Source: Candidatus Omnitrophota bacterium
Lineage (GTDB): Bacteria; Omnitrophota; Gorgyraeia; Duberdicusellales; 4484-171
Assembly: GCA_003154195.1 (NCBI GenBank)
Contig: PMCS01000029.1
Coordinates: 304,960-368,959, forward strand
Length of the DNA: 64,000 nt
Direction: 5' to 3'
The notes below the pieces were generated by a model. It saw only the letters and a list, made by a program, of their open reading frames with translations, was not told where the DNA came from and made no database searches. Each line of letters starts with the position of its first letter. Within the stretch, counting starts at the first letter, position 1. This document shows, piece after piece, positions 1 to 19,595 of the stretch. A program made the position numbers and the translations under genes.

Positions 1-196
1 ACGGGAATTTATTCATATCGAAAGATTGGCCAATCTGAGTGCGCTGCCGCCGTTCGGGTTTAAGGTCAATTGTTTTCCGGTTAAGATAAAAAATACGGGA
101 GGCGCGTGGGCGCGGGTTGTGGCGATTGTATAGGGTAGGGGCGGGTTTATAACCCACCCTCTATGAAATTGTGGAATTGTATAATCAAAATCGGCG

Positions 197-340
197 AAAA
201 AATTTCACCACAGAGGACACAGAGAGGAACAAAACAGGAAAAATAATTTCTCACCACGAAGACGCGAAGTTCACGAAGAAGAAATAAAGACAAAAGATTT
301 TTGTCCACAGATTACACAGATTTTCACAGATTGATAAAAG
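197..340. repeat. Low-complexity CACAGAG/CACGAAG-type repeats: two forward arm copies of the TIR motif found at 12.6, 18.8 and 19.6 kb, then three CACAGATT units
   Basis: The strings aatttcaccacagaggacacagagaggaaca and tctcaccacgaagacgcgaagttcacgaagaag resemble ttaccacgaaggcacaaagaacacgaag found at 12610 and 19600. cacagatt occurs three times at 307-340. Confidence 0.6.
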
Positions 341-420
341 GGTGATAGGTTGTGAAAGATAATAAATTGGAGAAAGATTTTAACAACGAATTACGCAAAT
401 TGCACAAATTAAAATAATTT

Positions 421-1182
421 ATGATTCTTGAAAAACAGTTCGAAGGTATACTCTGTAAGTATCCGGAGCTGATAGAAGACGGTTTAAAATTCAAAGGTCG
501 GCAGATTACCCTTTATGGTAAAAGAATGGATATTTTATTCGAAGACAAGTTCGGGCAGAAACTTATCGTCGAGCTTAAAGTTCGTACCGTTGTCCGTGAA
601 CATATCGGACAAGTTATGGAGTATGAAGGCGGTGTCTTAAGCGTAGAAGATCCCACTGCTAGGATTATGCTGGTCGGCAATAGAGTGCCGCCTAATTTAA
701 AAAAGGCATTGGACCATCATGGGATAGAGTGGAAAGAGATTACCTTTTCTTATTTAAAAGAATTTTTATCTGTTCGCAACGATAGAGAGCTCGGCATTTT
801 ATTCGATGATGGCTTAACGCCGTCTACTCTGGGCGATAGCAAGGATATGGATAAAGATTTCTCAGCCGGGTTAGAGGTTAATAAAACTCAAGATAATTCT
901 GCAAATGCTACAAGAACTAAACGGCAACAGCCATCGTATGGGTCGCCAGAATGGGTAGAAAGGCGGAAAAAAACCGGCTTTCGGGACGATTGGATTGCCC
1001 GGCTGGAAGCTTTGAAGAAGGACCCAAAAAATATTGAAGAACTCTACAGGTTTTGGGGGTATCGCCCGTGGCCGGGTGGGTTTGCCAAGAGGTTACGCAA
1101 TCGGGCAAAAGTATATCCCCAGTATGCAAAGGCAATCGAGGAAGCGATTGCTTTTGTAAAGTCAGCAAAGAAAGGTTTTTGA
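421..1182 (+). CDS. PD-(D/E)xK nuclease, DUF91/NucS-like N-terminal domain with an uncharacterised C-terminal extension
   Basis: The N-terminus carries a D..E.K nuclease signature (MDILFEDKFGQKLIVELK) typical of the NucS/DUF91 fold. The ORF is 253 aa and its ATG directly follows an A-rich leader. Confidence 0.5.
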   Translation: MILEKQFEGILCKYPELIEDGLKFKGRQITLYGKRMDILFEDKFGQKLIVELKVRTVVREHIGQVMEYEGGVLSVEDPTARIMLVGNRVPPNLKKALDHHGIEWKEITFSYLKEFLSVRNDRELGILFDDGLTPSTLGDSKDMDKDFSAGLEVNKTQDNSANATRTKRQQPSYGSPEWVERRKKTGFRDDWIARLEALKKDPKNIEELYRFWGYRPWPGGFAKRLRNRAKVYPQYAKAIEEAIAFVKSAKKGF

Positions 1183-1283
1183 TATTGCTTAATACTGGAA
1201 ATATGAACAATCTGCTGAAGGAAAAATTGTTCAGATACTGTCTGAACAATTAGTTTTAAGGTTACTTTAGGCAGGCATCAATT

Positions 1284-1829
1284 ATGAAAGATAATTCAAA
1301 ACAAATCGAGGTGGTTTCAAGCGGAGTTATCGCCGGAAAGATACGTCTAATCCGCGGGAAAAAAGTCATATTTGATAGTGATCTTGCCGCTTTGTATGGT
1401 GTTGAGACGAAACAGCTAAAACGTGCTGTTAAGCGAAATATTGAGCGGTTTCCCGAAGATTTTATGTTTGAACTTACCCGCGAAGAATCAGATAACTTGA
1501 GGTGCCAAATTGGCACCTCAAGTTGGGGCGGCAAGCGCTACCTGCCGTATGCTTTTACCGAACAGGGCGTTGCCATGCTTTCCAGCGTTTTAAACAGTAA
1601 AAGGGCTATCCAAGTCAATATTGCTATTATGCGTGTTTTTGTGGCGATTAAGGAAATGCTTTTAGCGCATAAAGAATCATTGCTCAAAATTAATAAACTT
1701 GAACAGAGAATAGAACGAAAATTCGATAAATACGACAAAGACATCGAACTTATTTTCAGCGCTATTCAGCAACTTCTTGTGGAAAAAGAAAAACCCAAGC
1801 GACAAATCGGCTTTCATGTTGGTAAATAA
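1284..1829 (+). CDS. ORF6N (KilA-N-like) domain protein
   Basis: Strong match to the ORF6N family signature: IRGKKV.FDSDLAALYGVETKQLKRAVKRNIERFPEDFMFELT...TSSWGGKRYLPYAFTEQGVAMLSSVL. Confidence 0.8.
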   Translation: MKDNSKQIEVVSSGVIAGKIRLIRGKKVIFDSDLAALYGVETKQLKRAVKRNIERFPEDFMFELTREESDNLRCQIGTSSWGGKRYLPYAFTEQGVAMLSSVLNSKRAIQVNIAIMRVFVAIKEMLLAHKESLLKINKLEQRIERKFDKYDKDIELIFSAIQQLLVEKEKPKRQIGFHVGK

Positions 1830-1851
1830 GAATTTTATTTAACTTTTTTTT

Positions 1852-1889
1852 AACTTTAGGCATTTTAGGCACTTTGAACTTTAGGCATT
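1852..1889. promoter_or_regulatory. Three tandem TTTAGGCAYTTT repeats directly upstream of the SRPBCC gene RBS
   Basis: The sequence is aactttaggcattttaggcactttgaactttaggcatt. It is followed by AAGGGGG and the ATG at 1907. Confidence 0.3.
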
Positions 1890-1906
1890 AAAAAGGGGGT
1901 AATTAA

Positions 1907-2335
1907 ATGGCTCATACGGTAAATCGCATCGTGATCAACGCTCCTTACGAAAAGGTTTTTGAGATGTCTAACGATATTACCCGCTGGAAGGAATTTTTTG
2001 ACGAGTATACGGCCAGCGAAGTAGTTTCCCAGGAAGGCAACAAAATTACTTTTAAGCTAAGCCATCAAAATGGGACAAGCTGGACCAGCTATCGCCTGCT
2101 TTTTAAAGACCAGAAATTTACTTATGCCGAGCGCCTTGAGCCGAAAATGCCTTTTGTGTATATGAAGATAATCTGGCTTTACCGGGAAGTCGCCGGCGGC
2201 ATCGAAATGAGCTGGATCCAGGATTTTACGATGGATTCAAAAGCGAAATTCAACGACGCGCAGGTAGAAGAGATAATGAATAAACATTCCGCGGAAAATA
2301 TGAAACGGTTTAAGGAAATCATCGAGAAGGCATAA
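1907..2335 (+). CDS. SRPBCC (Bet v1/START-like, polyketide cyclase/dehydrase family) protein
   Basis: A 142-aa protein with a Polyketide_cyc2-like profile (NRIVINAPYEKVFEMSNDITRWKEFF...). RBS AAGGGGG. Confidence 0.6.
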   Translation: MAHTVNRIVINAPYEKVFEMSNDITRWKEFFDEYTASEVVSQEGNKITFKLSHQNGTSWTSYRLLFKDQKFTYAERLEPKMPFVYMKIIWLYREVAGGIEMSWIQDFTMDSKAKFNDAQVEEIMNKHSAENMKRFKEIIEKA

Positions 2336-2380
2336 GCATTGTTTGTAAATCACATAGCTAAACTATAAAAAAGGAGCGAG

Positions 2381-2923
2381 ATGAAAAAAAGCTTGAAACG
2401 CAAGAATCCTTCAGTTCAGCCGGCGGCCGGACCGGATATCTCTGGCCTGGTGGTTAAAATGCAGGAGCAATTGGTTAATTTGGAGCGGAAGGTAGATATT
2501 TTAATCAGCCGTCTTCCGGGAAGACCCCCGGAAGTTAAGCTTCAGCCGGTTCAACCGGTTCAACAACTGCAACAGTCCCGGCAGCCTCAACCGCCGCTTC
2601 GCCAGAATGAGATTAAGCAAAATAACGGCTTCAGGGAGAGAACCTTGTATAAAACAATCTGCGCCGATTGCCACAAAGAATGCGAAGTTCCCTTTAAGCC
2701 CAGCGGTAATCGTCCGGTATATTGTAAAGAGTGTTTTTCCCGGCGCAAGCAAAGCGGCGGTTTATTTAAAGGAAATAATAACCCTCAGCCGGGGGAAATA
2801 AAACCTGTGTCTGTCGCGGTGCCTCCGGTTTCTTCGTCACCTGCGGCCACCAAACCGGAGATCACTAAAACCAGAAAGCCCGGCGCTAAGAAAAAAACTG
2901 TTTCCCCGAAACGGAAAAAATGA
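2381..2923 (+). CDS. Pro/Gln-rich protein with a CxxC-x17-CxxC zinc ribbon
   Basis: Motif CADCHKECEVPFKPSGNRPVYCKECF, a Lys-rich C-terminus, and RBS AAAGGAG. Confidence 0.5.
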   Translation: MKKSLKRKNPSVQPAAGPDISGLVVKMQEQLVNLERKVDILISRLPGRPPEVKLQPVQPVQQLQQSRQPQPPLRQNEIKQNNGFRERTLYKTICADCHKECEVPFKPSGNRPVYCKECFSRRKQSGGLFKGNNNPQPGEIKPVSVAVPPVSSSPAATKPEITKTRKPGAKKKTVSPKRKK

Positions 2924-2929
2924 TTTTAT

Positions 2930-5113
2930 GTGATTATCAGAATACTTTTTTGGTGTGCTTTGATGAAGAAACTTTTAAAATTATTAAAGATTGCCGCAAT
3001 GGCTTTACTGGTTATTTTTATTCTGGCGTCAGCCGGTATTGTCATTTTTATTAAAACTTTTAACGCCAATAAATATAAGCCCCAGATAATTAAAGCAATC
3101 AGCCAAGCTCTCGGCCGGCCGGCGGCTATTGATGATATAAGCCTGAAAGTTTCCTTAAGGGGCGGCCTGGTTTTACAGCTTAAGGGCTTTAGATTAAACG
3201 ATGACCCGGCTTTCAGTAAAGATAATTTTTTAGAAATACCCCGGTTAGATGCTGCGATGGATATCATCGGTATTATTTTTAAGCACCGGATTTCCCTCGC
3301 GGTCATTACGATTGATGCACCTAAGACAGTGATTATTCGCGACGCTTCCGGCAGGCTTAATCTCCAAACCTTTGGCATGCCAACCGCGTCAAAACCATCG
3401 GCTTCGGCATTACCGGCAATTTTTATCAACTCATTTAAAATAAATAATGCCGCCGTAATCTTCAAGGATAAGGCCTTTTCCCCCGGGCTCTCAATCCTGC
3501 TTGATCAGCTTAACTTCGAAATAAAAGATTTTTCTCTGGATAAGCCTTTTGATGTTTTGCTGCAGGCGGCGGCGTTCAGCCCCCGGCAAAATTTCAACGC
3601 TTCCGCAAAACTCGCCTTGGATTTAATCGCCAGGGCGGTTAAAGTCTGCGATGCCCGGGCGTCGGTTGATCTCGGCTCCTTTTCTTTAGAGCAATTATCC
3701 CGTTTACCGATGATAAAACCGGGACAACTTCCCGAATTTTTATCCGGTAAAGTAGAGATAGTGTTCGCGCCGATAACCGTTTCGAAAAAAGGTTTAAGCC
3801 GGCTTTCCGCTGACATAACTTTAACTGACGGCGTGGTGGCGGCTTCTCATTTAATACCAGGTTTAGCGCTTAATCTCGGGAAGATAAACGGTTCCTTAAA
3901 GAACTTTTCTCCGGATTTTAAAAAGCCTTTTGATGCCAGCGTGAAAATGCAGTATTTAAGCGACCACCCTAATGTCAGTTTTAACGGGCAGGTAACTTTT
4001 GATCCGGTAAAAACATCAGTCCGGATAAGCAATGCCGGGATAGGGCTGGACCTGACGAATTTTTCCTTAAGCGGGCTTAAGGCCGATGTGGCCGCGCTTA
4101 AAGACGTCCCTTTGCCGGTTCAGGTAGGAGGAACCATCGACGTCTCTATCGTTAACGCGGATATCTCCGCAAAAGGGCTGGAAAGCCTGGCGGCAAAAGC
4201 TAAATTTACCAACGGTTTGGTTAAGCTTGACCAGCTTAACCAAGTGCTTTCTGGGATAAGCGTGGATGCAAGTTTAAACGAAAAAGATCTAACCATTGAT
4301 AACCTTAGCGCCGGCCTGGGAAAAGGTAGCATCCGGGCTAAGGGTGTGGTGAAGGATTATTTATCCGGCCGGGCGTTTGAGTTGGAAGCGGAAATAAAGG
4401 ATATTGAACTTGGCGAAGTAATCGAACAGTCTAAGGCGCAAATAAAGGTGAGCGGTTTAGCGGCGGGCAATTTCAAGGCCGCCGGTCATGCCGATGATTT
4501 AAAATCAATAAAAGCCGACGGCGTTTTTACGGTCAAGCCGGTTACGCTTAAGAATTTTAATATTTTAAAAACAGTTTTAGAGAAGATTTCTTTTTTGCCC
4601 AATGCCAGCGAAGGGATTAAGAACGGGTTAAGCAATAAATACGCTAAGAAGCTGGAAAGCCCCGATACCGAGATAAATAGCGCGGTGTTTACTTATGCGT
4701 TTTCGCAAGGCACGGTTCATCTTGAACCGGTGTCGATTGATGCCGATGAGTTTATCTTCAGTGGTAAAGCCGACGCGGATTTGGCTCAAGCCTATACGGT
4801 CGAAGGGAATGTGACTATTCCCGCCGAGCTTTCCGCGGCAATGGCCAAGGGTGTGGATGAACTGAAATATCTTTATGACGATAAGAACAGCATTACTATC
4901 CCGGTTTATGTCAAAGGACAGGGGGCCCAGGCGCCTAAAGTGGAAGTAACCCGGACTGCCGCACAATTAACTAAAAGTGTGGCGGTCAATAAAGGGGCGG
5001 AAGCGCTCGGCAAGTTAATCAATAAGTATACGGGAGGCGACAATGCTTCCGGTGAAGAAAATAATAACGGCAGCGAGGTCATCAAAGGCATTCTTAATAA
5101 AATTCTGAAGTAA
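2930..5113 (+). CDS. asmA: AsmA-family outer-membrane biogenesis protein
   Basis: An N-terminal TM helix followed by an AsmA-like region (AIDDISLKVSLRGGLVLQLKGFRLNDDPAFSKDNFLEIPRLDAAMDII); 727 aa. An alternative ATG lies at 2963. Confidence 0.7.
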   Translation: MIIRILFWCALMKKLLKLLKIAAMALLVIFILASAGIVIFIKTFNANKYKPQIIKAISQALGRPAAIDDISLKVSLRGGLVLQLKGFRLNDDPAFSKDNFLEIPRLDAAMDIIGIIFKHRISLAVITIDAPKTVIIRDASGRLNLQTFGMPTASKPSASALPAIFINSFKINNAAVIFKDKAFSPGLSILLDQLNFEIKDFSLDKPFDVLLQAAAFSPRQNFNASAKLALDLIARAVKVCDARASVDLGSFSLEQLSRLPMIKPGQLPEFLSGKVEIVFAPITVSKKGLSRLSADITLTDGVVAASHLIPGLALNLGKINGSLKNFSPDFKKPFDASVKMQYLSDHPNVSFNGQVTFDPVKTSVRISNAGIGLDLTNFSLSGLKADVAALKDVPLPVQVGGTIDVSIVNADISAKGLESLAAKAKFTNGLVKLDQLNQVLSGISVDASLNEKDLTIDNLSAGLGKGSIRAKGVVKDYLSGRAFELEAEIKDIELGEVIEQSKAQIKVSGLAAGNFKAAGHADDLKSIKADGVFTVKPVTLKNFNILKTVLEKISFLPNASEGIKNGLSNKYAKKLESPDTEINSAVFTYAFSQGTVHLEPVSIDADEFIFSGKADADLAQAYTVEGNVTIPAELSAAMAKGVDELKYLYDDKNSITIPVYVKGQGAQAPKVEVTRTAAQLTKSVAVNKGAEALGKLINKYTGGDNASGEENNNGSEVIKGILNKILK

Positions 5114-5170
5114 GCGGCTTGCGATGAGGCTTGGAATTTTGGGACTATCTTCTTTAAAATACAAATAATT

Positions 5171-6499
5171 ATGGATAATTTATTTCAACAATCGGAAAAA
5201 ACTTATACGGTTTTAGAATTAAACACCGCGGTGAAAAACCTTATCCGCAACGAATTTCCCGATCACGTCTGGGTCTGCGGCGAAATTCAGGATCTGCGCG
5301 ACCGGGGCGTAATAAATTTAAACCTGGTGCAGAAACACCAGAAGTTTGACGAAATCACCGCGCAGGCCAAAGCGGTAATTTTTGAAAATATCAAACCGCT
5401 GATCATGCGCCGGCTTAAAGAAGCGGACGAAACATTCGAATTAAAAAAAGATATCGAAGTAAAACTGCTTTGCCGGGTTGACCTTTACGCCAAGACCGGC
5501 CAATTCAGTTTGACGGTAGTCGATATCGACCCATATTTCACTCTGGGTAAAATCGCTGCCTCCCGCCAGAAGATCATCGAAGAATTAAAAGTTAAGGGGC
5601 TGCTGGAAAAAAATAAAAGCCTTTTCTTCCCCGAAGTCCCGTTAAACATCGGATTGGTCACTTCTTATGATTCCGCGGCGTTTCACGATTTTGTTCATGA
5701 GCTGGAACAGTCGGGGTTTGGGTTTAAGGTATCGGTATGGGATTCTTATGTGCAGGGGAAGCAGACCGAAACCGACGTGACCGTAGCGCTTAATTATTTT
5801 GGCGGCCGCCCGGCCGGAGAAATCGACGTGGTAGTGATTTCCCGCGGCGGCGGCTCAACCGCGGATTTAAGCTGGTTTGACAATAAACAGATCGCCGAAG
5901 CGATCGCCTCTTGCCCGATACCGGTGATCACTGCCCTGGGGCACCAGATCAATGTCACGGTATGCGATATTGTTTCCCATACCAGCGTTAAGACGCCGAC
6001 TAAGGCGGCGCAGTTTTTGATCGATAAAGTAAGCGATTTTAAAACGGCGATTACGCAGTTAAGCGGCACGGTTATCGCCGCGAGCGAAGATATCCTCGCC
6101 GGTTCCCGGAGTAAGCTGGCCGGCGCGGCTTCGCGCATTGAATCGTTAAGCCAGAGGTTTTTCCGGTTTCATCAACAAAACCTCGCGGAGCAGCGGGTGG
6201 GAATTTTCCGCGCCGCCGAAGAAATGGTTAAAACTAGAAAAGAAAAGATAAAAGAACAAAGCTTCCTGTTGCGGGATTCGCTAAAAAAACTCTTTAAAAA
6301 TCTGGAAAATGAGGTAAAATATATTACCGATAAGGTAAGCCTGCTAAATCCCCGTAATGTTTTAAAGCGCGGCTATTCCTTAACCCTCAAGCGAGAGAAA
6401 ACCGTTAGATCGTTAAACGATTTAGAGCGGGGCGATATCATCAAAACTATTCTTTATGAGGGTTCGGTGATTTCCCAGGTTAAAGAGAAAAATGAATAA
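5171..6499 (+). CDS. xseA: Exodeoxyribonuclease VII large subunit
   Basis: N-terminal OB fold plus catalytic domain (TVLELNTAVKNLIRNEFPDHVWVCGEI). Overlaps xseB by 8 nt. Confidence 0.9.
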   Translation: MDNLFQQSEKTYTVLELNTAVKNLIRNEFPDHVWVCGEIQDLRDRGVINLNLVQKHQKFDEITAQAKAVIFENIKPLIMRRLKEADETFELKKDIEVKLLCRVDLYAKTGQFSLTVVDIDPYFTLGKIAASRQKIIEELKVKGLLEKNKSLFFPEVPLNIGLVTSYDSAAFHDFVHELEQSGFGFKVSVWDSYVQGKQTETDVTVALNYFGGRPAGEIDVVVISRGGGSTADLSWFDNKQIAEAIASCPIPVITALGHQINVTVCDIVSHTSVKTPTKAAQFLIDKVSDFKTAITQLSGTVIAASEDILAGSRSKLAGAASRIESLSQRFFRFHQQNLAEQRVGIFRAAEEMVKTRKEKIKEQSFLLRDSLKKLFKNLENEVKYITDKVSLLNPRNVLKRGYSLTLKREKTVRSLNDLERGDIIKTILYEGSVISQVKEKNE

Positions 6500-10336: not shown

Positions 10337-12591
10337 AACAACTCTCTTCTTTTTTGAAGAGCGCTTATCTTCTTTTTGCCGCCGCCATTATCTTTCTAAG
10401 CCTGATTTCCTATTCGCCGCTCGACATCCCATTTTTAACTTATCCCACTCCGTTAAAAGTAAATAATCTGATTGGCGTTTGGGGAGGCTATTTAGCTTGT
10501 ACCCTTCGTTTTCTTTTCGGCTATGCCGCCTATTTTTTGCCGTTTTACCTTTTTTTCTTAGGCATAGCGTTTTTGGGAAAGGTTCGTTTTCATGGCCTGG
10601 CGAAGAGCCGGACAATGAGCATCTTTTCGTTTTTATTTTTTATTACATTTTTGGCGACGTTGATCGCGGTTTTCTTTGAAGGTAGAAACGCGGTTTTTGA
10701 AGCCGGCGGCCTGGCGGGATTTTTGCTTGCGGATTTTTTTAAGAAATACTTAGGGTTCTACGGCCTGGTGATTACTTCAACCTTTATTCTGGTGATTACG
10801 GCGATATTGCTGTTCGGGTTTTTCTTTGTAGATTTATTAGCGCTGGCCAAAGAAATAATCGCTGAAATTTCCGCAAGATGGGCTGATCGGAAAAACAAAA
10901 AGGAAGAAGGCGGCAAGGTAAAGCCGATAAAAATTTTCGATAAAAAACCGCAAGCGCCGGATAAGCGGGAAGAGAAACAAAAAATTACCCCGGCGGCGAT
11001 AAATAAAACGGAAGTAAAACCGGAAATCAAAGTCTACGCGCCCAAGGTTCCGGAGGCGGTAAAGCCGGCCGTCGGGCAAAACGCTCTTGCTAAAGAAAAA
11101 GTAGTAAATCCCGATGAAATTAAAAAGAAAATCGAAGCTTTGGAGAGCGGCATCAAAAATAAATTCGACCCGGCAACTTATAAATTGCCGGAAATAAGCC
11201 TCCTGAAGGTCCCGCCGCACCTTGATTACCGCGAGGTCAAGGAAGATATTGAGGCGAGCATCAAGAATCTGGAAGAAACGCTTCTGGAATTCGGCGTGGA
11301 AGCGAAAGTGGTAAGCGTGCAAAAGGGCCCGGTAGTCACGATGTATGAACTGGAGCCCTCGGCCGGCGTAAAAATACAAAAAATTTCCGCCCTGGCCGAC
11401 GATATCGCCCTGGCGATGAAGTCATCGAGCGTGCGCATTGTCGCGCCGATCCCCGGAAGAGGCACGATCGGCGTGGAAGTCCCCAATGAAAAAAAACACC
11501 TCGTTTATTTAAGGGAAGTCCTGGAAGAGAAGACCTTTATCGAAGCGGCCTCGAAACTTACCATATCAATCGGCAAGGATGTTTCCGGCAATTGCGTCGT
11601 TGCGGATTTAAAAGATATGCCGCATCTTTTGATTGCCGGGGCTACCGGCTCGGGGAAGACGGTTTGTGTCAATTCTTTGATTACCTCTGTGCTTTTTAAA
11701 GCTAAACCCGATGAGGTTAAGTTTATCCTGGTCGATCCCAAGATGGTAGAGCTCGCTCCTTTTGCCGGCATCCCCCATCTGATTCATCCGATAATCTCCG
11801 ATTCGAAAAAAGCTTTTGCCGCCCTGAATTGGGCGGTGGGAGAGATGGAGCGCCGTTATAAGATACTGGCGGCCGAGGGCGTGCGCAATATCGATAGCTA
11901 TAATAAAGGAGTAAAAAAACTGCCTTATATAATTATCGTTATTGATGAACTGGCGGATTTAATGTTGGTGGCGCGAGAGAACGTCGAAACTTCGATTCAA
12001 CGCCTGGCGCAATTATCCCGTGCAGTCGGAATTCATTTAATATTGGCCACCCAAAGGCCGTCGGTTGATGTAATCACCGGGGTTATCAAAGCTAATTTTC
12101 CGGCGCGGATATCCTTTAAAGTTTCGGCAAAAGTTGATTCGCGCACGATTCTTGATGCCATGGGCGCCGATAAACTTTTAGGTAAGGGCGATTTGTTATT
12201 TTTAAAGCCGGGGGCGATAAAAATAATACGGGCGCAAGGTTCTTTTATTGATGACGAAGATATAGATAATCTTACTGATTTTATCAGAAAGCAAGGCGGC
12301 CCGGTTTATGAAGATGGGATTGTCGAGGCGGAAAAAAAGAATATTCTGGACATCGAGGGCGATGAGTTATATGATGAAGCGGTAAAAGTTGTGATGCAGT
12401 CGCGTCAGGCTTCCGCTTCAATATTACAGCGGCGGATGCGCGTGGGGTACACCCGGGCAGCCCGGCTTCTGGATTTAATGGAGCAAAAAGGAGTAGTGGG
12501 GCCGTTTTGTGGCAGCAAAGCCCGGGAAATTCTCCTCGACCCGGAAGGTTACCTTCAAGCGGATTCACAAGCCAAAGAGGAAGGGATATGA
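10333..12591 (+). CDS. ftsK: DNA translocase FtsK
   Basis: N-terminal TM region, linker, Walker A motif (GATGSGKT) and a gamma winged-helix C-terminus. Confidence 0.9.
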   Translation: MKQLSSFLKSAYLLFAAAIIFLSLISYSPLDIPFLTYPTPLKVNNLIGVWGGYLACTLRFLFGYAAYFLPFYLFFLGIAFLGKVRFHGLAKSRTMSIFSFLFFITFLATLIAVFFEGRNAVFEAGGLAGFLLADFFKKYLGFYGLVITSTFILVITAILLFGFFFVDLLALAKEIIAEISARWADRKNKKEEGGKVKPIKIFDKKPQAPDKREEKQKITPAAINKTEVKPEIKVYAPKVPEAVKPAVGQNALAKEKVVNPDEIKKKIEALESGIKNKFDPATYKLPEISLLKVPPHLDYREVKEDIEASIKNLEETLLEFGVEAKVVSVQKGPVVTMYELEPSAGVKIQKISALADDIALAMKSSSVRIVAPIPGRGTIGVEVPNEKKHLVYLREVLEEKTFIEAASKLTISIGKDVSGNCVVADLKDMPHLLIAGATGSGKTVCVNSLITSVLFKAKPDEVKFILVDPKMVELAPFAGIPHLIHPIISDSKKAFAALNWAVGEMERRYKILAAEGVRNIDSYNKGVKKLPYIIIVIDELADLMLVARENVETSIQRLAQLSRAVGIHLILATQRPSVDVITGVIKANFPARISFKVSAKVDSRTILDAMGADKLLGKGDLLFLKPGAIKIIRAQGSFIDDEDIDNLTDFIRKQGGPVYEDGIVEAEKKNILDIEGDELYDEAVKVVMQSRQASASILQRRMRVGYTRAARLLDLMEQKGVVGPFCGSKAREILLDPEGYLQADSQAKEEGI

Positions 12592-12604
12592 AGGCAATCC
12601 ATTA

Positions 12605-12790
12605 AAACCTAAAATTTACCACGAAGGCACAAAGACACAAAGAAGATTAAGAATTATATTTTTCTTTTTTGTTGTTCTTGGTGACTCCGTCCCCTTCGGG
12701 GAGGCTTCGCTTCGCTGCGCACTGTCTTGGTGACAAAGTTTTCGGCTCTATTTTTTAGTGACTTAGTGGTGGAATCTTTACGGTTTGAAA
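12605..12790. repeat. MITE-like intergenic element with CACGAAG-type terminal inverted repeats and an internal UUCG-tetraloop hairpin core
   Basis: Left arm aaaatttaccacgaaggcacaaagacacaaagaag. Core gtccccttcggggaggcttcgcttcgctgcgcactg. Right arm cttagtggtggaatctttacgg is the reverse complement of the left arm. The element is homologous to sequences at 18725-18925 and 19596-19745. Confidence 0.7.
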
Positions 12791-12792
12791 AT

Positions 12793-13752
12793 ATGCTTGA
12801 AGAATTTTGCAAACAATTAAAAGAGAAACGCGAAGAATCAGGCTACAGCATCGAAGATGTCGTGGAAAAAACAAAACTGTATCCGGTGGCCATTCGCGAT
12901 ATCGAAGATGGCAATCTGGAAAATATAAGCCCGATTTATTTAAAGGGATTTATAAAGATTTACGCCTCTTTTCTGGGTATCGACGCAACTCAGGCCTTAA
13001 AAGATGTATCTTCGGTCAAACCCAAGCCCAAGCCTTCTTTTTTTAAGAAATTAAAAAACGATAATTTACCGAAGAAAGATACCGTAGCGCCGCCTGTTTC
13101 GGAGAAAAAAAATGCAATTGGGGAATCCGTGGTTATCGAAAAGCCGGTTGCGCCGCAAAAAAACCAGGCTGATTTTCCGGCCGTAGAGACAAAAAAATTA
13201 ACGGTTCTTTTAATCCTGGCAGTTATTTTAATGATCGGCGCGGTTTCCTTCAGCCGGTTTATCATCAAAGCAAAAGACAGCCGCCGCCGCAAACAAATCG
13301 TCGCGGAGCAGGCCGCCGGGGATGAACCGGGAGCGTTAAAGAAGGTAACGGCTAAAGAAGCGAAAAAGAACGCGCGGGATAAAATAAAGAAACCTTTGCC
13401 GAAAAACGGCGCGCTGAAAAGACATAAAAAGGAAATAAAAAACGAAGTGATGTCGCCCCGGATAAATTTAGGAAAAGATTTTTCCCAAACCGCTGAAATG
13501 ACGGTTTCCCTGACCGCTAAAAAAAATTGTTTTATTAAAGTAAAAAGCGACGGCAAACTTCTTTTTGAAGGAATCTTAAAAAAGGGAGTCGTGGAAAGCT
13601 GGCGCGGCCATAAGGTAATTGATTTGAAGACCAGCGACGGTTCGGCTTTATATATCGAATTGAACGGCCGGCCGCTTCCCGTTTTAACCGCAATGCACAA
13701 ACCCATTAAAAGCCTCAAAATCACTCCTGCCGGGATTTCTGTGGACAAATGA
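12793..13752 (+). CDS. rodZ: Cytoskeleton protein RodZ-like (HTH_XRE + TM + DUF4115)
   Basis: N-terminal HTH (SGYSIEDVVEKTKLYPVAIRDIEDGNLENISPIYLKGFIKIYASFLGID), a single TM helix, and a C-terminal DUF4115-like beta domain. Confidence 0.7.
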   Translation: MLEEFCKQLKEKREESGYSIEDVVEKTKLYPVAIRDIEDGNLENISPIYLKGFIKIYASFLGIDATQALKDVSSVKPKPKPSFFKKLKNDNLPKKDTVAPPVSEKKNAIGESVVIEKPVAPQKNQADFPAVETKKLTVLLILAVILMIGAVSFSRFIIKAKDSRRRKQIVAEQAAGDEPGALKKVTAKEAKKNARDKIKKPLPKNGALKRHKKEIKNEVMSPRINLGKDFSQTAEMTVSLTAKKNCFIKVKSDGKLLFEGILKKGVVESWRGHKVIDLKTSDGSALYIELNGRPLPVLTAMHKPIKSLKITPAGISVDK

Positions 13753-13814
13753 TTATTTTTACGAAGTAAAAATAATCATCATTCCAAAAAATGCGTTTGA
13801 AAACGCATTTTTTG
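13751..13814. terminator. Two consecutive perfect hairpins right after the rodZ stop codon
   Basis: GATTATTTTTAC-GAA-GTAAAAATAATC at 13751-13777 and AAAAATGCGTTT-GA-AAACGCATTTTTT at 13785-13814. The second is flanked by A-runs and T-runs, giving it a bidirectional character. Confidence 0.6.
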
Positions 13815-13899
13815 GGTAAAGAGACGGAACACCCACACCGGCGAATTAGCCGTACAAAAAAATGATTGACAAATAAGACCGTAGGAGTAAAGTAAGGTT

Positions 13900-14047
13900 A
13901 CAATTTGGCGTGGTGCAGTTTGAAGGAGTAAATCCGCCACGTTCCGCCAAGAGCGGACCAGCCTGTAAAAAACATCAAGGAAGCTGGAAAACAACAAAAA
14001 CCTTCGTTTGATTGTGCACGGTACAATTAGGCGAAGGTTTTTTTATT
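13900..14047 (+). ncRNA. Putative small RNA ending in a strong intrinsic terminator
   Basis: Promoter-like TTGACA at 13866 with TAAAGT 16 nt downstream, and TACAAT at 13899. No ORF is present. Internal hairpins are CCGC-CAAGA-GCGG and CCAGC...GCTGG. The terminator is AACCTTCG...CGAAGGTT followed by TTTTTTT at 13999-14047. Confidence 0.35.
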
Positions 14048-14070
14048 TTCTTTGCAATTATTTGGGTTTA

Positions 14071-14194
14071 TTCTTTGCAGAGAAAATGACCCGCCGACGA
14101 ATTGTGGCGGGTATATATGCCCGCAGTTGTATAGGCTTATTCCTTGCAGGTAAAATTACCCGTCAAAGGGTTGCGGCGGGTTATTTAGAGGTGA
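14071..14194 (+). repeat. Two tandem ~55-nt direct repeats, each with a GC hairpin and possible alternative pairing
   Basis: TTCTTTGCAGAGAAAATGACCCGCC-GACGAATTGT-GGCGGGT is duplicated as TTCCTTGCAGGTAAAATTACCCGTC...GCGGCGGGT. GGCGGG can pair either with the upstream ACCCGCC or with the downstream GCCCGC, which gives the region an attenuator-like look. Confidence 0.5.
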
Positions 14195-14276
14195 GGACGA
14201 ACAAATAGGTTTATAGGGAAAAATTGGAAGTCACAGATTGCGACTTCCAATTAAAATAAAGACAGGAGAATGATAT

Positions 14277-15350
14277 ATGAAACTTGAGTTAAGGCATGAC
14301 GGGAATTATATAAAATGGTTGGCGGCTATCAAGCTCAAAATTCGACAAGTACAGCTTAAGGCGGCGGTAAAAGTAAATACCGAACTTTTAACTTTTTATT
14401 GGGAACTCGGGGTGGATATTGTACAAAAACAAGCTGAAGCAAAATGGGGCGATGGTTTAATCGGGCAATTAAGCAAGGATCTATCTGCTGAATTTCCCGA
14501 TATAAAAGGTTTCTCTCGAACAAACCTCTTATATATCCGTCAATGGTATATGTTTTATTTCGAAAATTTTAAGAAAATCCCACAGGCTGTGGGACAAATG
14601 AGTAATGCATTTGTTAAAGAAATTTTTCAGGTTCCCTGGGGGCATAATAGAGAAATTGTCGCCAAATGTAAAACATTAGAAGAAGCTGTTTTTTATGTTC
14701 GTAATACAATCAAACACAATTGGAGCCGCGCGGTATTAGTGCATCAGATAGAATGGGGGCTTTTCCGCAGAGAGGGAAAAGCTGTCAATAATTTTGCGTT
14801 GACGTTGCCGAAGCCTCATTCGGATTTAGCTATGCAAACTCTCAATGACCCGTATATTTTTGACTTCTTGGCTATGACAAAAGATTATGACGAGAGAGAA
14901 CTGGAAAAGGCTTTGACTGGGCATATAACAACATTCTTATTGGAATTGGGTACCGGTTTTGCTTATGTGGGCCGGCAAATCCCGCTGCATGTTGGTGAAA
15001 GTGAATTTTTTATAGATTTGCTTTTTTATCATTTAAAGCTCCGTTGTTATGTGGTGATAGAGTTGAAAACGGTAGCGTTTCAGCCGGAGTTTGCCGGCAA
15101 ATTGAATTTCTACGTAACGGCCGTGGACCGTCGGTTGCGGAATGAATTAGACCGGCAAACGATTGGTATCTTCATATGTAAAACAAAAGATAAAGTCGTA
15201 GCCGAATACTCTTTAAGCGATATCAAAAAGCCCCTCGGCATTTCTGAATACCGCTTAACACAATCTCTGCCGAAGAAGTTTAAGTCAAGCTTGCCTTCGA
15301 TTCAGGAGATTAAGGCAGGGTTGAGTGGAGATGGAAACAAGGAAAAATGA
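14277..15350 (+). CDS. DUF1016 / YhcG-like PD-(D/E)xK nuclease family protein
   Basis: A C-terminal PDDEXK core (FIDLLFYHLKLRCYVVIELK) and an N-terminal YhcG-like helical domain. RBS AGGAG lies 8 nt before the ATG, which is preceded by a 9-bp hairpin at 14229-14252. Confidence 0.75.
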   Translation: MKLELRHDGNYIKWLAAIKLKIRQVQLKAAVKVNTELLTFYWELGVDIVQKQAEAKWGDGLIGQLSKDLSAEFPDIKGFSRTNLLYIRQWYMFYFENFKKIPQAVGQMSNAFVKEIFQVPWGHNREIVAKCKTLEEAVFYVRNTIKHNWSRAVLVHQIEWGLFRREGKAVNNFALTLPKPHSDLAMQTLNDPYIFDFLAMTKDYDERELEKALTGHITTFLLELGTGFAYVGRQIPLHVGESEFFIDLLFYHLKLRCYVVIELKTVAFQPEFAGKLNFYVTAVDRRLRNELDRQTIGIFICKTKDKVVAEYSLSDIKKPLGISEYRLTQSLPKKFKSSLPSIQEIKAGLSGDGNKEK

Positions 15351-15593
15351 ACATATTGAAAAGGCGTTAATTATGGCGAATTCGCCATATTAAAAAATGA
15401 AGCTACTGACAAAACATAAAGGATTGAGGCGGTTGGAATAAAGCTATTTAAAACTCCAACAACTTGTTGGAGAAATTAACTGGAAAAATATCTGCCCATT
15501 ATGCAAGGAGCTGATAGACCCATTGGAATGGTTTTTTATGAACAGTTTTGAGTTTGTTGAGGTGAGCTTGAAGCAGTCGTTAGGGTTTACCAG

Positions 15594-15632
15594 AAAAAAA
15601 TTTTAACAACGAATATCGCAAATCGCGCGAAT
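15594..15632. repeat. ~37-nt motif TTTTAACAACGAATNTCGCAAATNGCNCNAAT, second copy (first copy at 374-410 upstream of the DUF91 nuclease)
   Basis: aaaaaaattttaacaacgaatatcgcaaatcgcgcgaatg here matches gaaagattttaacaacgaattacgcaaattgcacaaatt at 374-410. Confidence 0.55.
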
Positions 15633-15668
15633 GTTTCTTTCGATGGGATGGAGCAGGAAGGCGGGGAA

Positions 15669-15914
15669 TTAAGTGAGCTGTCCCCCGAATCCCCCGATTG
15701 TTTCCTCTTCGCGCAGCCAATAAGAAAACCCCGCCGGTTTTTTGTTTACCCGGAGTACGTCGATTTTCGTATGAGGGATATTGAGCGATTCTATTGCATC
15801 CTTGAGGGAAGGGGTACCTTTAACCTGACAGGATAATCCTTTTGCGCAACGGTTCTTTGGTAAAAATATCTTAAGATTGCCGTGGAAACGAAATTTTACC
15901 GTAATTTCGTCCAT
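15669..15914 (-). CDS. Mut7-C ubiquitin-like (MoaD/ThiS-fold) domain protein, stand-alone
   Basis: Matches the Mut7-C_ubiquitin pattern FRF.G.L..FLP.........S.KD.IE.L.IPHT.ID...VN.K...FSY.L. No RNase (DUF82) domain is attached. Confidence 0.6.
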   Translation of the reverse strand: MDEITVKFRFHGNLKIFLPKNRCAKGLSCQVKGTPSLKDAIESLNIPHTKIDVLRVNKKPAGFSYWLREEETIGGFGGQLT

Positions 15915-17149
15915 CGTAATTTTGCTGCCCCCATGCCGGCTTCATGGTTAATTCCCGGGTCGCTGACACGGCCCATGAATAAAATCGTATTCGTAGTGTT
16001 ATCTTTAATCACAAAAATAAAAGGGTGGTCGGCTTGAAAAAACACCGATTCCGAATCCGTGTGCATTAACGCTTCTCCTGTGGCTGCGGCAGCTTCGGTA
16101 CCTTCCTCGTTAACTTCCACAAAAGCCTTGTGAAAAATATCACCGATATATAGAACGCCTTTCTCCACATTAGCCATACCGCTGAAATCAGCCCTTGTAT
16201 TGCTGAAAGTTTCTTTCATGCCCAAGGATACCAGGGATTTTTTTAAGGGAATTTCTGGGGCAGTTTTGAATTTAGGCAGGTAAACTATTACTTTTCGGGA
16301 ATCAGGCAAAGTGATTAAATCATTCAACTTGCCGGAATCTAAAGCATTTTCCACCGCATTAATGCCGTTTTTTTCTTTGGGTAAAATCACCACCATCGAT
16401 AATTTTTCGCCCCGGTAAGGCAGGGCCAATATCTGGACGTCATTGGTTTCTTTGTAGGCGTACTCTCTGTTTTGGGTCATCATTGTTGCGTTTATGGGAT
16501 TATCCGGGGTCAAGTAAAAAGGCATGTCTTTGGTATCTTCTTTTTTGAATTCCGCGGCCCACTTGCCTTTGAAATAAATAGCGTTGGTTAAAACCAGGTG
16601 GGCTTGGTCATTCAGAGATCCCCCCGGCAGTAAATCTTTGATGCGTCGTTTAGTTTTTTCTTCTACCCAGGAGTTGATGCGTATCCTTACTTGTTCATAG
16701 TCATGTTTAAAATCTACCTTTTCCAGGGCATTGGCGTAGTTAATTTTAACCAACTCGAGATATTGGTGGTAAAAATCAAACGACTGTTCCGCCCAAAGCG
16801 AGTTGGCGATATTCAACTCGATATCGCCGAAAGCGGCAGCTTGATTGAGCGTCTCGTTTAAGGCTTTAAAGCCGGGGTGGATATTCTGGCCGCAAGCGTA
16901 GTGCATTACTCCGGCGATTTCCTCCGCCGTGGTAGTTTTTGCTCCGGCATAAGCCATGGCCATGCAGCCGGAGATACTGTAGGGAGAAAAGAAGATATTG
17001 CCGGGTTCACTCCGGGCTTGGTTATATAAATCCAAGGCAAAAGCGTTGATGGCTTGGCCGGCGTCTTTAGCCGTCGCGCTTTGCGCCGGAGCTGAAGGGC
17101 AAAATAAAAGAAACATTGCGGCTAATGCGCCCAAGGTTTTATTTTTCAT
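15896..17149 (-). CDS. Serpin (serine protease inhibitor) with N-terminal signal peptide
   Basis: Signal peptide MKNKTLGALAAMFLLFCPSAPAQSA. Serpin hinge and reactive-centre-loop region (FHKAFVEVNEEGTEAAAATG...FFQADHPFIFVIKDNTTNTILFMGRVSDP). Confidence 0.85.
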   Translation of the reverse strand: MKNKTLGALAAMFLLFCPSAPAQSATAKDAGQAINAFALDLYNQARSEPGNIFFSPYSISGCMAMAYAGAKTTTAEEIAGVMHYACGQNIHPGFKALNETLNQAAAFGDIELNIANSLWAEQSFDFYHQYLELVKINYANALEKVDFKHDYEQVRIRINSWVEEKTKRRIKDLLPGGSLNDQAHLVLTNAIYFKGKWAAEFKKEDTKDMPFYLTPDNPINATMMTQNREYAYKETNDVQILALPYRGEKLSMVVILPKEKNGINAVENALDSGKLNDLITLPDSRKVIVYLPKFKTAPEIPLKKSLVSLGMKETFSNTRADFSGMANVEKGVLYIGDIFHKAFVEVNEEGTEAAAATGEALMHTDSESVFFQADHPFIFVIKDNTTNTILFMGRVSDPGINHEAGMGAAKLRWTKLR

Positions 17150-17395
17150 AGAGTTACCCCTTTTATCATTGCAGCATGTGAAGGATACCGTTTCCCAGAA
17201 AAGATTATTATCACACTTTTTTTTGGGCAGACAATAATTTTCTTTGCCCCTGATTATTTCGCGGCAAGCCGCGAAAGAATCAGAATTAAAAATTTTTAGA
17301 AGCCGATTGGCGGCATTTTGGGTTAAAATAACCTAAAAACAAGCGTATTGGTATGCTATAATATTAACCGGAAATTAGAAAATTATCTTATCTGA

Positions 17396-17422
17396 GATCC
17401 CGCAGCCTGTGGCTTCGGGATC
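17396..17422 (+). promoter_or_regulatory. 7-bp perfect hairpin in the rimO 5' leader
   Basis: GATCCCG-cagcctgtggctt-CGGGATC. An extended -10 (TGCTATAAT) lies at 17354-17362. Confidence 0.3.
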
Positions 17423-17462
17423 AAGGAAAATATGCCTGAAAGGCAGATTTTTCTTGAATAAT

Positions 17463-18710
17463 ATGCCCCAAAAAACCTTCTCTTTTATTTCCTTAGGTTG
17501 TTTCCGCAACACTTACGATTCGCAGGCTATTGCCCAAAGATTCAGCGACAGCGGGTATCGCTTTGTCGGCGAAGGTGAGCCTTGTGATACGCTGGTCGTC
17601 AATACCTGCGGGTTTATTACTGACGCCAAAAAAGAGTCATTGGGAGTTATTGAAGAAGCAATCGGATTGAAGAAAAAAAGAAAAGTAAAACAGATCATTG
17701 TGGTTGGCTGTCTGGTCGAGCGGTATCGTAAAGATTTAGAAAAAAGTTTTCCTCAAGTGGATGAGTGGCGGGGGGTGGAAGAGTTTAACCGGAAATTTAA
17801 GCCGGGAAAAAATGTTTTCTTACCTAAGCACATCGGTTTTTTAAAAGTTTGCGAAGGTTGTTTTAACCATTGCAGTTACTGCGCCATCCCTCTCATCAAA
17901 GGAAAATTCCGCAGCCGGCCGCTAAAGGAATTAATAAAAGAGGCTCGATTTATGGAAAGAAGCGGTGTTCGGGAATTAAATATTATTGGCCAGGATATCA
18001 CCGGCTGGGGAAGAGATTTAGGCGCAAAACAAGATTTAACGCTTTTGGTGAGAGGTATTTTAAAAAACACGAAAAATATACCATGGATAAGAATGATTTA
18101 CACCCACCCGAAACATTTTTCTCATTCTCTCATCGATTTAATCGCCGGAGAACCGCGAATCTGTAAATATATTGATTTGCCTATCCAGCATATCAACGAC
18201 CGGATCCTGAAATTAATGAATCGGGGTGTAACAAAAAAAGAAATAAAAACTCTTATCGAAACGATAAGAAAGAGAATTCCCGGCTGCCACATCAGGACTT
18301 CTTTGATCGTCGGTTTTCCTTCGGAGACGCAAAAGGAATTCAACGAACTTGTTGATTTTGTTGAAGAAATAAAGTTTGAAAAATTAGGCGTATTTACCTA
18401 TTCGCGGGAAGAGGGTACGCCGGCTTTTCGTTATAGCGGCCAAATCCATCAGAAGACAAAAGAGGCGCGACGCGACGCGATGATGACTATACAAAAAGAA
18501 ATATCGCTGAAAGTAAACGAAAAATTTATCGATAAAGAAACCACGGTTTTGGTTGACGAAAAAAATAAAGACTCCTGTATTGGCCGCACTCAATATGACG
18601 CTTATGAAGTGGACGGAGCGGTTATCCTGCCCGCAGGAGGATTTATCCCCGGAAAATTTTATAAAGTTACCGTAACCGACGCGCTGGAATATGATTTGGT
18701 TGCGGGCTAA
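17463..18710 (+). CDS. rimO: Ribosomal protein S12 methylthiotransferase RimO (MiaB-family radical SAM + TRAM)
   Basis: MTTase N-terminal domain (FISLGCFRNTYDSQ), radical SAM motif CEGCFNHCSYC and a C-terminal TRAM domain. The ORF extends upstream to 17409. Confidence 0.8.
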   Translation: MPQKTFSFISLGCFRNTYDSQAIAQRFSDSGYRFVGEGEPCDTLVVNTCGFITDAKKESLGVIEEAIGLKKKRKVKQIIVVGCLVERYRKDLEKSFPQVDEWRGVEEFNRKFKPGKNVFLPKHIGFLKVCEGCFNHCSYCAIPLIKGKFRSRPLKELIKEARFMERSGVRELNIIGQDITGWGRDLGAKQDLTLLVRGILKNTKNIPWIRMIYTHPKHFSHSLIDLIAGEPRICKYIDLPIQHINDRILKLMNRGVTKKEIKTLIETIRKRIPGCHIRTSLIVGFPSETQKEFNELVDFVEEIKFEKLGVFTYSREEGTPAFRYSGQIHQKTKEARRDAMMTIQKEISLKVNEKFIDKETTVLVDEKNKDSCIGRTQYDAYEVDGAVILPAGGFIPGKFYKVTVTDALEYDLVAG

Positions 18711-18724
18711 ACCCCGGCTTTAAA

Positions 18725-18925
18725 ACTTTTTGCCACAAAGCGCAGTGCGGAGTGAAGCGTAGCCTCCCCGAAGGGGACAGAGCTCACGGAGTAAGAAGAA
18801 ATATTTGAAATCAATAGTTTTTTGTTCCCTTCGGGGAGGCTACGCTTTATTACGCACTGTGATTAGCTATTGAATTTTATCTCTGTGTTCTCTGTGTCCT
18901 CCGTGGTGGAATATCTTTCTGTTCG
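18725..18925. repeat. Two head-to-head copies of the MITE-like element (UUCG/GAAG hairpin core + CACAGAG arm)
   Basis: gcgcagtgcggagtgaagcgtagcctccccgaaggggac is the reverse-complement homolog of the 12680-12720 core. gttcccttcggggaggctacgctttattacgcactgtg is the forward homolog. Together they form a ~140-bp palindrome, with arm ctctgtgttctctgtgtcctccgtggtggaatatcttt. Confidence 0.7.
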
Positions 18926-19593: not shown

Positions 19594-19595
19594 AT

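Follow-up and report, generated by a model that had tools for sequence, protein, structure and literature searches.

A probable accessory hotspot in a conserved Omnitrophota operon, with a NucS-like nuclease gene, an ORF6N gene and recurrent intergenic repeat modules

We analysed a 64,000-nt stretch of the genome of a Candidatus Omnitrophota bacterium (the window), and in it the locus at positions 197–2335 with its flanks. A gene for a stand-alone PD-(D/E)xK nuclease (421–1182, + strand) is followed there by a gene for an ORF6N (KilA-N-like) DNA-binding protein (1284–1829, +) and one for an SRPBCC/aromatase-like protein (1907–2335, +). The best joint explanation, which we consider probable, is that the locus is a small accessory hotspot in a conserved operon, in which two unrelated candidate defence or mobile-element genes sit in a repeat-rich genome; that the nuclease gene and the ORF6N gene arrived independently, each as a cassette of one gene; and that the repeats around them are a lineage-wide family of short intergenic modules and not part of a nuclease/ORF6N system. 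The region is likely a defence-type hotspot, of modest interest.

Insertion between the Cyclase and SRPBCC genes

Four relatives (contigs L017–L020) shared the gene order ApbA-hypothetical-KAS-KAS-ACP-Cyclase-SRPBCC-MFS, with PNP_UDP_1 further upstream in two of them and an SDR gene plus a B12-radical-SAM gene after MFS in three. The spacer between Cyclase and SRPBCC was just 27–112 nt long in these relatives, and 1773 nt (134–1906) in the window. The window genome was 70–81% identical to them in KAS1, 72–75% in KAS2, 51–62% in ACP, 68–74% in Cyclase, and 69–79% in SRPBCC, and the nuclease, ORF6N, DUF5674, zf_Tbcl_2, and AsmA genes had no match in their loci. Orthologues of SRPBCC were found by the hundreds at 69–84% identity, those with a named source all being from Omnitrophota, and it is by such source names of core-gene orthologues that the organism is placed in this phylum; with a sister species included (89%), the range was 69–89%. 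Because the four relatives run from Cyclase straight into SRPBCC across so short a spacer, the comparison of gene order shows window 134–1906 to be a 1.77-kb accessory insertion in the Cyclase–SRPBCC spacer, and SRPBCC to be a core gene of a conserved type II polyketide synthase-like cluster, not as island cargo. The left flank of the insertion site is the conserved 3' end of the Cyclase (PF04199) gene (1–133, +, stop TAG at 131–133; 8916–9713 on contig L001), and the right flank is SRPBCC itself.

The initial annotation had described nuclease, ORF6N, and SRPBCC as one whole unit. Its reading of the single genes held: the nuclease matched NucS_C (28.3 bits) and the NucS/EndoMS fold, the 181-aa ORF6N protein matched Pfam ORF6N (1.5e-36), and the 142-aa protein at 1907–2335 matched Polyketide_cyc2/Polyketide_cyc. 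The three-gene unit fell away, as SRPBCC is a core Omnitrophota gene that stands right after Cyclase in four relatives.

At third codon positions, the GC content was 0.425 in the nuclease gene, 0.39 in ORF6N, and 0.405 in the DUF1016 gene further downstream, compared with 0.47–0.55 for the core genes measured. Because these values lie below those of the core genes and the N-terminal domain of the nuclease is 60–75% identical across many phyla, the composition and the similarity pattern support a foreign origin of both cargo genes. Of the 19 contigs carrying the nuclease protein we retrieved 10, and window 1–5200 was 100% identical in all of them (or in the part that each covers), in several samples; no strain variation at the insertion was found in these 10, so that this comparison is uninformative. 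The identical sequence was also present in GCA_003154645.1 and in several peat/fen metagenomes.

Synteny with the relatives was also lost after SRPBCC. MFS_1 follows SRPBCC in the four relatives and in the sister species (contig L078), with SDR and B12-radical-SAM genes next in three of the four; in the window, this place (2336–5113) is taken by zf_Tbcl_2 (CxxC-x17-CxxC) and an AsmA-family gene.

Relation of the nuclease and ORF6N genes

The nuclease family was surveyed with one genome per species, giving 55 loci (508 kb in total) from bacteria of many phyla and archaea. When 21 ORF6N proteins served as tblastn queries, none of the 55 had a match within 6 kb of the nuclease gene, and three further contexts of nuclease homologues also lacked ORF6N. 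The closest ORF6N homologues (76–77% identity) were those of the sister species (contigs L078 and L079), where the order is open reading frame (ORF) of unknown function-ORF6N-module E-SRPBCC (89% identical)-MFS, module E being one of the repeat modules described below. The ORF 5' of ORF6N is neither the nuclease nor Cyclase. Similarity to the window DNA, 78.6% over 1037 nt, sets in 15 nt past the start codon of ORF6N.

The nuclease and ORF6N genes were thus probably acquired independently, because ORF6N is missing from all 55 loci, and the sister species carries ORF6N but no nuclease gene beside it. ORF6N appears to be the older resident of the Cyclase–SRPBCC spacer, since the sister species shows the same arrangement of ORF6N, module E, and SRPBCC. 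Judging from the same comparison, the nuclease occupies a variable slot 5' of ORF6N, whose cargo differs between the two species. The conserved adjacency of a type II toxin-antitoxin or two-gene defence pair was not observed. A perfect 11-bp inverted repeat with a 5-nt loop lies between the two genes (1225–1251, AATTGTTCAGA-TACTG-TCTGAACAATT); it could be a terminator or an operator, and it was not conserved in the sister species.

The nuclease

The nuclease has 253 aa and begins directly with a NucS_C-type domain (about residues 1–128; Pfam NucS_C 28.3 bits with a cut-off of 24, residues 4–108), followed by a disordered linker (about 135–169) and a helical C-terminal domain (about 176–252). 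Its gene has no Shine-Dalgarno sequence. Residues D37, E51, K53, and Y68 were invariant over 86 sequences of the family, and Q64 was nearly so. In the AlphaFold model, the N-terminal domain reached a predicted local distance difference test score (pLDDT) above 90, and its best Foldseek matches were NucS/EndoMS structures (2vld, 5gke; E 5e-9, root-mean-square deviation 1.6 Å over 106 columns), so the nuclease has the PD-(D/E)xK fold of the NucS C-terminal domain. The C-terminal domain was modelled, without homologues, as four or five helices (176–252) with pLDDT 65–84. No Pfam domain was found in this half of the protein. A frame-shifted remnant of a known C-terminal domain was looked for by tblastn with 120 homologues against all frames of 1–2000, and nothing credible was found.

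The N-terminal 128 residues were 60–75% identical to those of more than 130 proteins, and archaeal homologues showed 33–54% identity. Near-identical N-terminal domains are joined to differing C-terminal domains across phyla: EVE in homologue P0002 (N-terminal identity 72%), DUF6157 in P0015 (67%), DUF4268 in P0016 (65%), DUF5655 in P0034 (65%), and DUF7225 in P0023 (60%). By these alignments, the nuclease belongs to a widely transferred family, made of a constant NucS_C-type domain, a linker, and interchangeable C-terminal domains. Defence-type genes were found near some of the homologues, namely type I and type IIG restriction-modification, PLD nuclease, PIN/MazE, Phd/ParE, AbiE, DISARM, and Dpd genes, and two integrases were also among the neighbours. 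The family was nearly absent from plasmids, with one weak match. Shared repeats 5' of the homologues in other phyla were sought; a Geobacteraceae locus had different repeats (TAGAAAC), and the others had none.

The ORF6N protein

The ORF6N protein (181 aa) carries a helical C-terminal tail behind its ORF6N domain. It matched model PDLC04856 of PDC-S05, a single-gene candidate in PADLOC, over its full length (2.8e-59, residues 10–176 on model positions 6–174 of 177) and the PHROG ‘anti-repressor’ family phrog_4792 (2.1e-32). At least 8000 homologues were found, with full-length identities of 60–67% in Planctomycetota, Desulfobacterota, and Bacteroidota, and relatives with 47–51% identity were seen in five uncultured gut phage contigs. 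Their contexts varied. The homologue in Scalindua adjoins a resolvase, with a possible tRNA-like sequence, read by eye, next to it; in one context the homologues are duplicated beside Rhs/Tc toxin genes, some are plasmid-borne with integrases or a Tn3 transposase as neighbours, and others stand alone in genomes. One representative of PDC-S05 lowered the plating of T7 and T5 on E. coli about 1000-fold (PMC12881386).

The initial annotation had proposed a prophage remnant or a defence or addiction island. The part of this proposal that stood is that the cargo is accessory, horizontally spread, and of defence-type affinities; functional pairing and a prophage remnant were not supported. The defence affinity is based on the PDC-S05 match of ORF6N, on the relatives of the nuclease with DUF4268 and DUF5655 (PDC-S11 and PDC-S18), and on the restriction-modification and toxin-antitoxin genes beside some homologues.

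Repeat modules in the window and the genome

On the 5' side of the nuclease gene is an array of four forward modules (197–420, +), each consisting of a T-run and about three tandem 8–10-nt units. These are module B (CACAGAG type, 203–225), module A' (CACGAAG type, 247–281), module C (CACAGATT type, 299–333), and module D (377–409), all on the + strand, which bears out the earlier report of CACGAAG-type repeats 5' of the nuclease (four modules at 203–409). The array was unpaired and without significant secondary structure (fold z-score +0.5 for 197–340). The right half of a module-E element with AACTTTAGGCA-type units (1840–1895, +, core 1852–1887) adjoins the SRPBCC ribosome-binding site on its 5' side, and one further module-E-type unit is found at 1264–1273, 5' of ORF6N. 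Module E occupies the same place in the sister species (L078 811–846).

Consensus scans at an identity of at least 70% over 74 kb of genome gave four copies of module A, two each of B, C, and D, and one of E, with zero matches in five shuffles used as control. Module B had two more borderline matches (17/23), one of which is the module C site; A' (247–281) and a gapped module-E copy at L001 4952–5007 are outside these counts. All of the approximately 12 copies were intergenic. Several stand beside accessory genes: 5' of the nuclease, 3' of ORF6N, in the DUF1016/Ub-Mut7C spacer, and on both sides of an insertion of DUF5674 and a hypothetical gene between the KAS genes (L001). Others lie in spacers between two core genes, namely a module A copy in ftsK–rodZ (12615–12643, +), an inverted module B copy in miaB–pgsA (18881–18911, − strand), and a complete hairpin in pgsA–pgpA (19597–19742; module A at 19601–19629 with its inverted copy at 19707–19735, −43.7 kcal/mol). 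Flanking repeats had been taken as a mark of a mobile island, and the presence of the same modules in these three core spacers takes away this argument.

Inverted module pairs folded strongly. The z-scores were −6.3 for the hairpin at window 19597–19742, −6.4 for L001 4893–5012, −6.9 for L002 3929–4048, −5.1 for L078 1292–1436, and −5.5 for L081 5540–5689; the Cyclase–SRPBCC spacer of L017 gave −2.6. Full module-E hairpins of 109 nt each were located at L001 4899–5007 and at L002 3935–4043 and 4635–4743. In the L002 and L005 strains, two such hairpins in direct orientation bracket a conserved gene (196 aa) that stands between ApbA and KAS1. In the L001 strain a single hairpin copy is present, and the intervening 700 nt with the 196-aa gene are absent. 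Because L001 keeps one copy where L002 and L005 have the gene between two, this alignment of strains indicates repeat-mediated gene deletion.

A second insertion in the same operon was observed at L001 6270–7300, about 2.3–3.3 kb 5' of window position 1. It comprises DUF5674 and a 116-aa hypothetical gene between the KAS genes, which adjoin in all four relatives. Its flanks are a module C (34/35 identical to window 299–333) and a module A, both inverted. Hairpins with tandem CCAAT-type arms (ACCAATGACCAAT...) were seen at L081 5540–5689, 3' of an ORF6N homologue, and at L078 1292–1436, 3' of the SRPBCC gene of the sister species. In a metagenome-assembled genome of Methanobacteriota (L073), hairpin copies at 1340–1460 and 4700–4810 have arms of three CACAGATT units (z-score −6.8), are each preceded by a shared TGTATATAAAGTATA stretch, and bracket a 3.3-kb segment with a nuclease homologue of the NucS_C+EVE type. 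The module architecture thus also occurs in an archaeon.

The recurring motif and co-regulation

Module D is the core of a motif of which the initial annotation had noticed a second copy near the DUF1016 and Mut7-C genes. Both genes were confirmed, DUF1016/YhcG at 14277–15350 (+) and Ub-Mut7C at 15669–15914 (−), and positions 370–409 and 15593–15632 (+) were identical at 33/40 (repeat family D16). When 40 dinucleotide shuffles of 134–420 were compared with the 74 kb of genome, their best values were 26–30/40; the match is beyond chance because the shuffles reached at most these values. A metagenome scan gave two more copies of the core in another organism (L021 and L022). Aligning further copies had been proposed as a check, and the four copies shared a sharply bounded 33-nt core, ATTTTAACAACGAAT-NN-CGCAAAT-N-RC-R-C-R-AAT, with unrelated flanks. 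Window 258–409 and L022 6883–7025 carry their modules in the same order (77% over 155 nt), and the L022 array sits in a hypA–hypC spacer.

A shared upstream motif had been taken as a hint at co-regulation of the two nuclease loci. Co-regulation is unsupported because the second copy, in a spacer between convergent genes, is 3' of each of them; it lies 243 nt past the DUF1016 stop and 37 nt past the convergent Ub-Mut7C stop, and is upstream of no credible gene. The L021 and L022 copies stand in unrelated spacers. The module D motif is a dispersed repeat, not an operator common to the two loci.

The same hypA–hypC spacer of the related organism (L022 6750–7500) is an imperfect palindrome of about 750 nt, with five forward modules (A, C-like, A2, C, and D), a centre, and then their inverted counterparts.

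Comparison with known systems

The nuclease shares the layout of N-terminal domain, linker, and C-terminal accessory domain with the single-gene PADLOC candidates PDC-S11 (NucS-like + DUF4268) and PDC-S18 (NucS-like + DUF5655), but its C-terminal domain is neither DUF4268 nor DUF5655, and it is not a member of either. Homologues with N-terminal domains 60–72% identical carry DUF4268, DUF5655, or EVE, and P0016 and P0034 match the PDC-S11/PDC-S18 models through their own C-termini. To our knowledge, the PDC-S11 and PDC-S18 candidates have had no experimental test. Modification-dependent (type IV) restriction nucleases follow the same logic, in that one polypeptide combines a constant nuclease with a recognition domain that can be exchanged; the nuclease of the window has no recognisable reader domain, and modification dependence would be suggested by analogy only. 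Modified T4 DNA is degraded by MdgA and MdgB (bioRxiv 10.1101/2025.02.28.640651), two DUF4268 nucleases that are the nearest functional precedent; this does not imply a likeness of the nuclease domains. With NucS/EndoMS, the nuclease has the catalytic fold and the D...ExK motif in common, but it lacks the NucS N-terminal domain, scores far below the equivalog cut-off, and is encoded by an accessory gene. The ORF6N protein resembles the PDC-S05/ORF6N and phage anti-repressor families through its matches to PDLC04856 and Pfam ORF6N, and it represents a short form with ORF6N and a helical tail, unlike the protective PDC-S05 member with its RhuM domain.

Repetitive extragenic palindromic (REP) elements and bacterial interspersed mosaic elements (BIMEs), miniature inverted-repeat transposable elements (MITEs), and the short tandemly repeated repetitive (STRR) heptamers of cyanobacteria form a class of short, intergenic, multi-copy sequences. 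Our modules are like them in being short, intergenic, multi-copy, and associated with rearrangement, with many inverted hairpin pairs; as imperfect palindromes with pair z-scores of −5 to −7, they have the properties of REP/BIME- or MITE-like elements. They differ from this class in that each arm is made of about three tandem 8–10-nt units after a T-run, in that several sequence classes (A–E) share one architecture, and in the stacking of unpaired half-modules in arrays. No RAYT/IS transposase was found in the examined 74 kb, no duplications were noted at the element ends, and a description of the modules was not found in the literature searched. As to an integron cassette, no integrase is encoded within 10 kb, and the modules 5' of the nuclease are direct arrays of tandem units, not attC-like hairpins.

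Alternative explanations

Several observations weigh against the hotspot with two candidate defence genes as the explanation of the locus. The nuclease scored 22.7 bits against PDC-S11 and 17.9 bits against PDC-S18, in both cases through residues 3–70 of the N-terminal domain only. Residues 127–253, which the initial annotation had rightly called an unknown C-terminal domain, matched only themselves in a phmmer search of 1.84 billion representative proteins, and Foldseek returned nothing for the stand-alone model of this domain (pLDDT 71, best E 1.5). Because it has neither a homologue nor a structural match, the domain may be a degenerate tail rather than a sensor. In a plain listing, the neighbours of the nuclease homologues comprise housekeeping genes as well as defence genes, with no recurrent partner. 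For ORF6N, a second PDC-S05 model (PDLC04869) was covered at positions 2–167 of 306 only, and the protective PDC-S05 representative carries a RhuM domain (PMC12881386), which the 181-aa protein lacks. Regarding the route of arrival, the insertion is marked neither by an integrase or transposase nor by a target-site duplication. The repeats were examined in 74 kb of the genome, and the functions of nuclease and ORF6N are deduced from sequence and structure only.

The two cargo genes could instead form a pair. They are adjacent, co-oriented, and 101 nt apart, both have defence or mobile-element affinities, and the perfect palindrome between them would be a possible operator, so that ORF6N might control or neutralise the nuclease in a two-gene toxin-antitoxin, addiction, or regulator-effector system. 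This is largely refuted by the lack of co-occurrence (ORF6N at 0/55 nuclease loci and 0/3 further contexts); in addition, the sister species keeps ORF6N without the nuclease, ORF6N homologues stand alone in varied contexts, and the palindrome was not kept with ORF6N. Such a pair is very unlikely. Even less probable is a decayed prophage or satellite remnant, where ORF6N alone has phage relatives (the ‘anti-repressor’ PHROGs and the five gut phage contigs with 47–51% identity). The insertion is just 1.77 kb long and holds two genes. Within 10 kb there is no phage gene, be it for a capsid, a terminase, or an integrase, and no att-like feature; the window has no tRNA gene; and neither 50,697 phage records nor PHROGs nor an IMG/VR pattern scan yielded the nuclease family. 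ORF6N might also have been domesticated as the transcription factor of the distal part of a split operon (SRPBCC onward), with the TTTAGGCA units as putative binding sites. Such units are on both sides of ORF6N (1264–1273 and 1852–1887), and the order ORF6N, module E, and SRPBCC is kept in two species with a DNA identity of 79%; but four other relatives have no ORF6N at this site, module E occurs elsewhere as a hairpin unrelated to ORF6N, and promoter-like signals were not above chance. We regard domestication as unlikely.

Two further alternatives concern the nuclease. It may be a decaying, functionless passenger, whose orphan C-terminal half was left after loss or scrambling of a reader domain. 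The 127 C-terminal residues without any homologue, the missing structural match at a moderate pLDDT of 71, and the missing Shine-Dalgarno sequence are in line with this. Yet the frame runs on for 125 codons beyond the nuclease domain, with the catalytic residues in place; the 10 retrieved contigs, from several samples, carry the gene with 100% identity; a helical fold is predicted (pLDDT 65–84) even without homologues; and the tblastn search gave no credible frame-shifted remnant of a known C-terminal domain, which leaves the passenger a rather doubtful possibility. A housekeeping mismatch-repair NucS/EndoMS enzyme, suggested by the fold of the nuclease domain, is extremely improbable: the NCBIfam equivalog NF003270 gave 43.4 bits against a cut-off of 216 and aligned at model positions 130–236 of 250 only, the NucS N-terminal DNA-binding domain is absent, so that full-length membership was rejected, and the gene is missing at the locus in four relatives and has a patchy cross-phylum distribution.

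Other features of the window

The gene content on both sides of the locus was inspected, as had been proposed for the sequence 5' of position 1, which contains AMP-ligase, PNP_UDP, ApbA, KAS, DUF5674, a hypothetical gene, KAS, ACP, and Cyclase. The genes 3' of the locus are zf_Tbcl_2, AsmA, xseA/B, M48 peptidase, rpsO, pnp, ftsK, rodZ, DUF1016, serpin, miaB, pgsA, and pgpA. The neighbourhood is ordinary chromosome. Known RNA families were sought in 1–2400 and 12560–20000, and only miRNA-like matches to a hairpin were returned, far below threshold. Counts of sigma-70 promoters and intrinsic terminators in 1–2500 were not above those of shuffles. Just past the Cyclase stop, a small hairpin was read from the sequence (139–159, GGGCGGGTT-TAT-AACCCACCC, 8/9 pairs). 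The 12-mer ATGAAATTGTGG follows at 163–174; it occurs twice in tandem at L015 6296–6330, 3' of a nuclease homologue on an unrelated metagenome contig, which may be chance.

Further repeats were observed. A GC-rich repeat (CAGTGCG..GAAGCG.AGCCTCCCCGAAGGGGAC) occurs three times (12685–12724, 18743–18782, and 18823–18864), always beside CAC-type modules, and its two copies at 18743–18864 are inverted. Two tandem units of about 65 nt at 14060–14200, 5' of DUF1016, each contain TTATTCYTTGCAG followed by an ACCCGCC...GGCGGGT hairpin, and an Rfam search of these units gave no match. In the right half of the window, a 48-nt repeat (TTAATGAGACTTCGCCGTAATGAAACTTGCCCGG...) is present four times (31866–31913, 32588–32635, 44228–44275, and 62360–62407), and CAC-type modules are absent there. 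A c-di-GMP-I riboswitch at 31618–31800 (56.4 bits, gathering score 35) sits between two small ORFs (31076–31447 and 32150–32539), each of which contains one copy of an 89-nt repeat (31121–31209 and 32180–32268). By eye, this repeat resembles a type IV pilin N-terminus.

Proposed mechanism and significance

For the hotspot with two independent cassettes, which we prefer, the following mechanism can be proposed. The model for the nuclease comes from the EVE and DUF4268 paralogues and from modification-dependent nucleases: it may act alone as a sensor-effector enzyme of the restriction type, in which the C-terminal domain would read some feature of foreign DNA and the N-terminal domain (D37, E51, and K53) would cut. 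The role of ORF6N would be a separate one, in defence or regulation through DNA binding. Inverted module pairs form long hairpins, and the modules act as recombination substrates in spacers beside core and accessory genes, where they help gene loss and plausibly gene gain.

A bolder extension is conceivable, though improbable as a whole. The modules may be an undescribed, widespread class of recombinogenic intergenic elements (Omnitrophota, the L081 organism, and Methanobacteriota) that makes cargo-swapping hotspots, the nuclease slot being one product; separately, the orphan C-terminal domain may be a new recognition module of a single-protein restriction enzyme.

What is new is the architecture and recombinogenic behaviour of the modules and the orphan C-terminal domain of the nuclease, both of modest interest; current concepts are unchanged, the annotation is refined, and testable candidates are offered. 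The modules provide direct evidence, at the level of aligned strains, of repeat-mediated gene loss in an uncultivated phylum, and they explain many spurious small ORFs and assembly breaks. The nuclease family, to which the window nuclease adds a C-terminal domain seen nowhere else, lends itself well to a search for candidate single-protein restriction enzymes of new specificity. The locus itself is a clean natural example of a small hotspot, in which one slot appears to keep an old ORF6N gene and the neighbouring slot changes its cargo.

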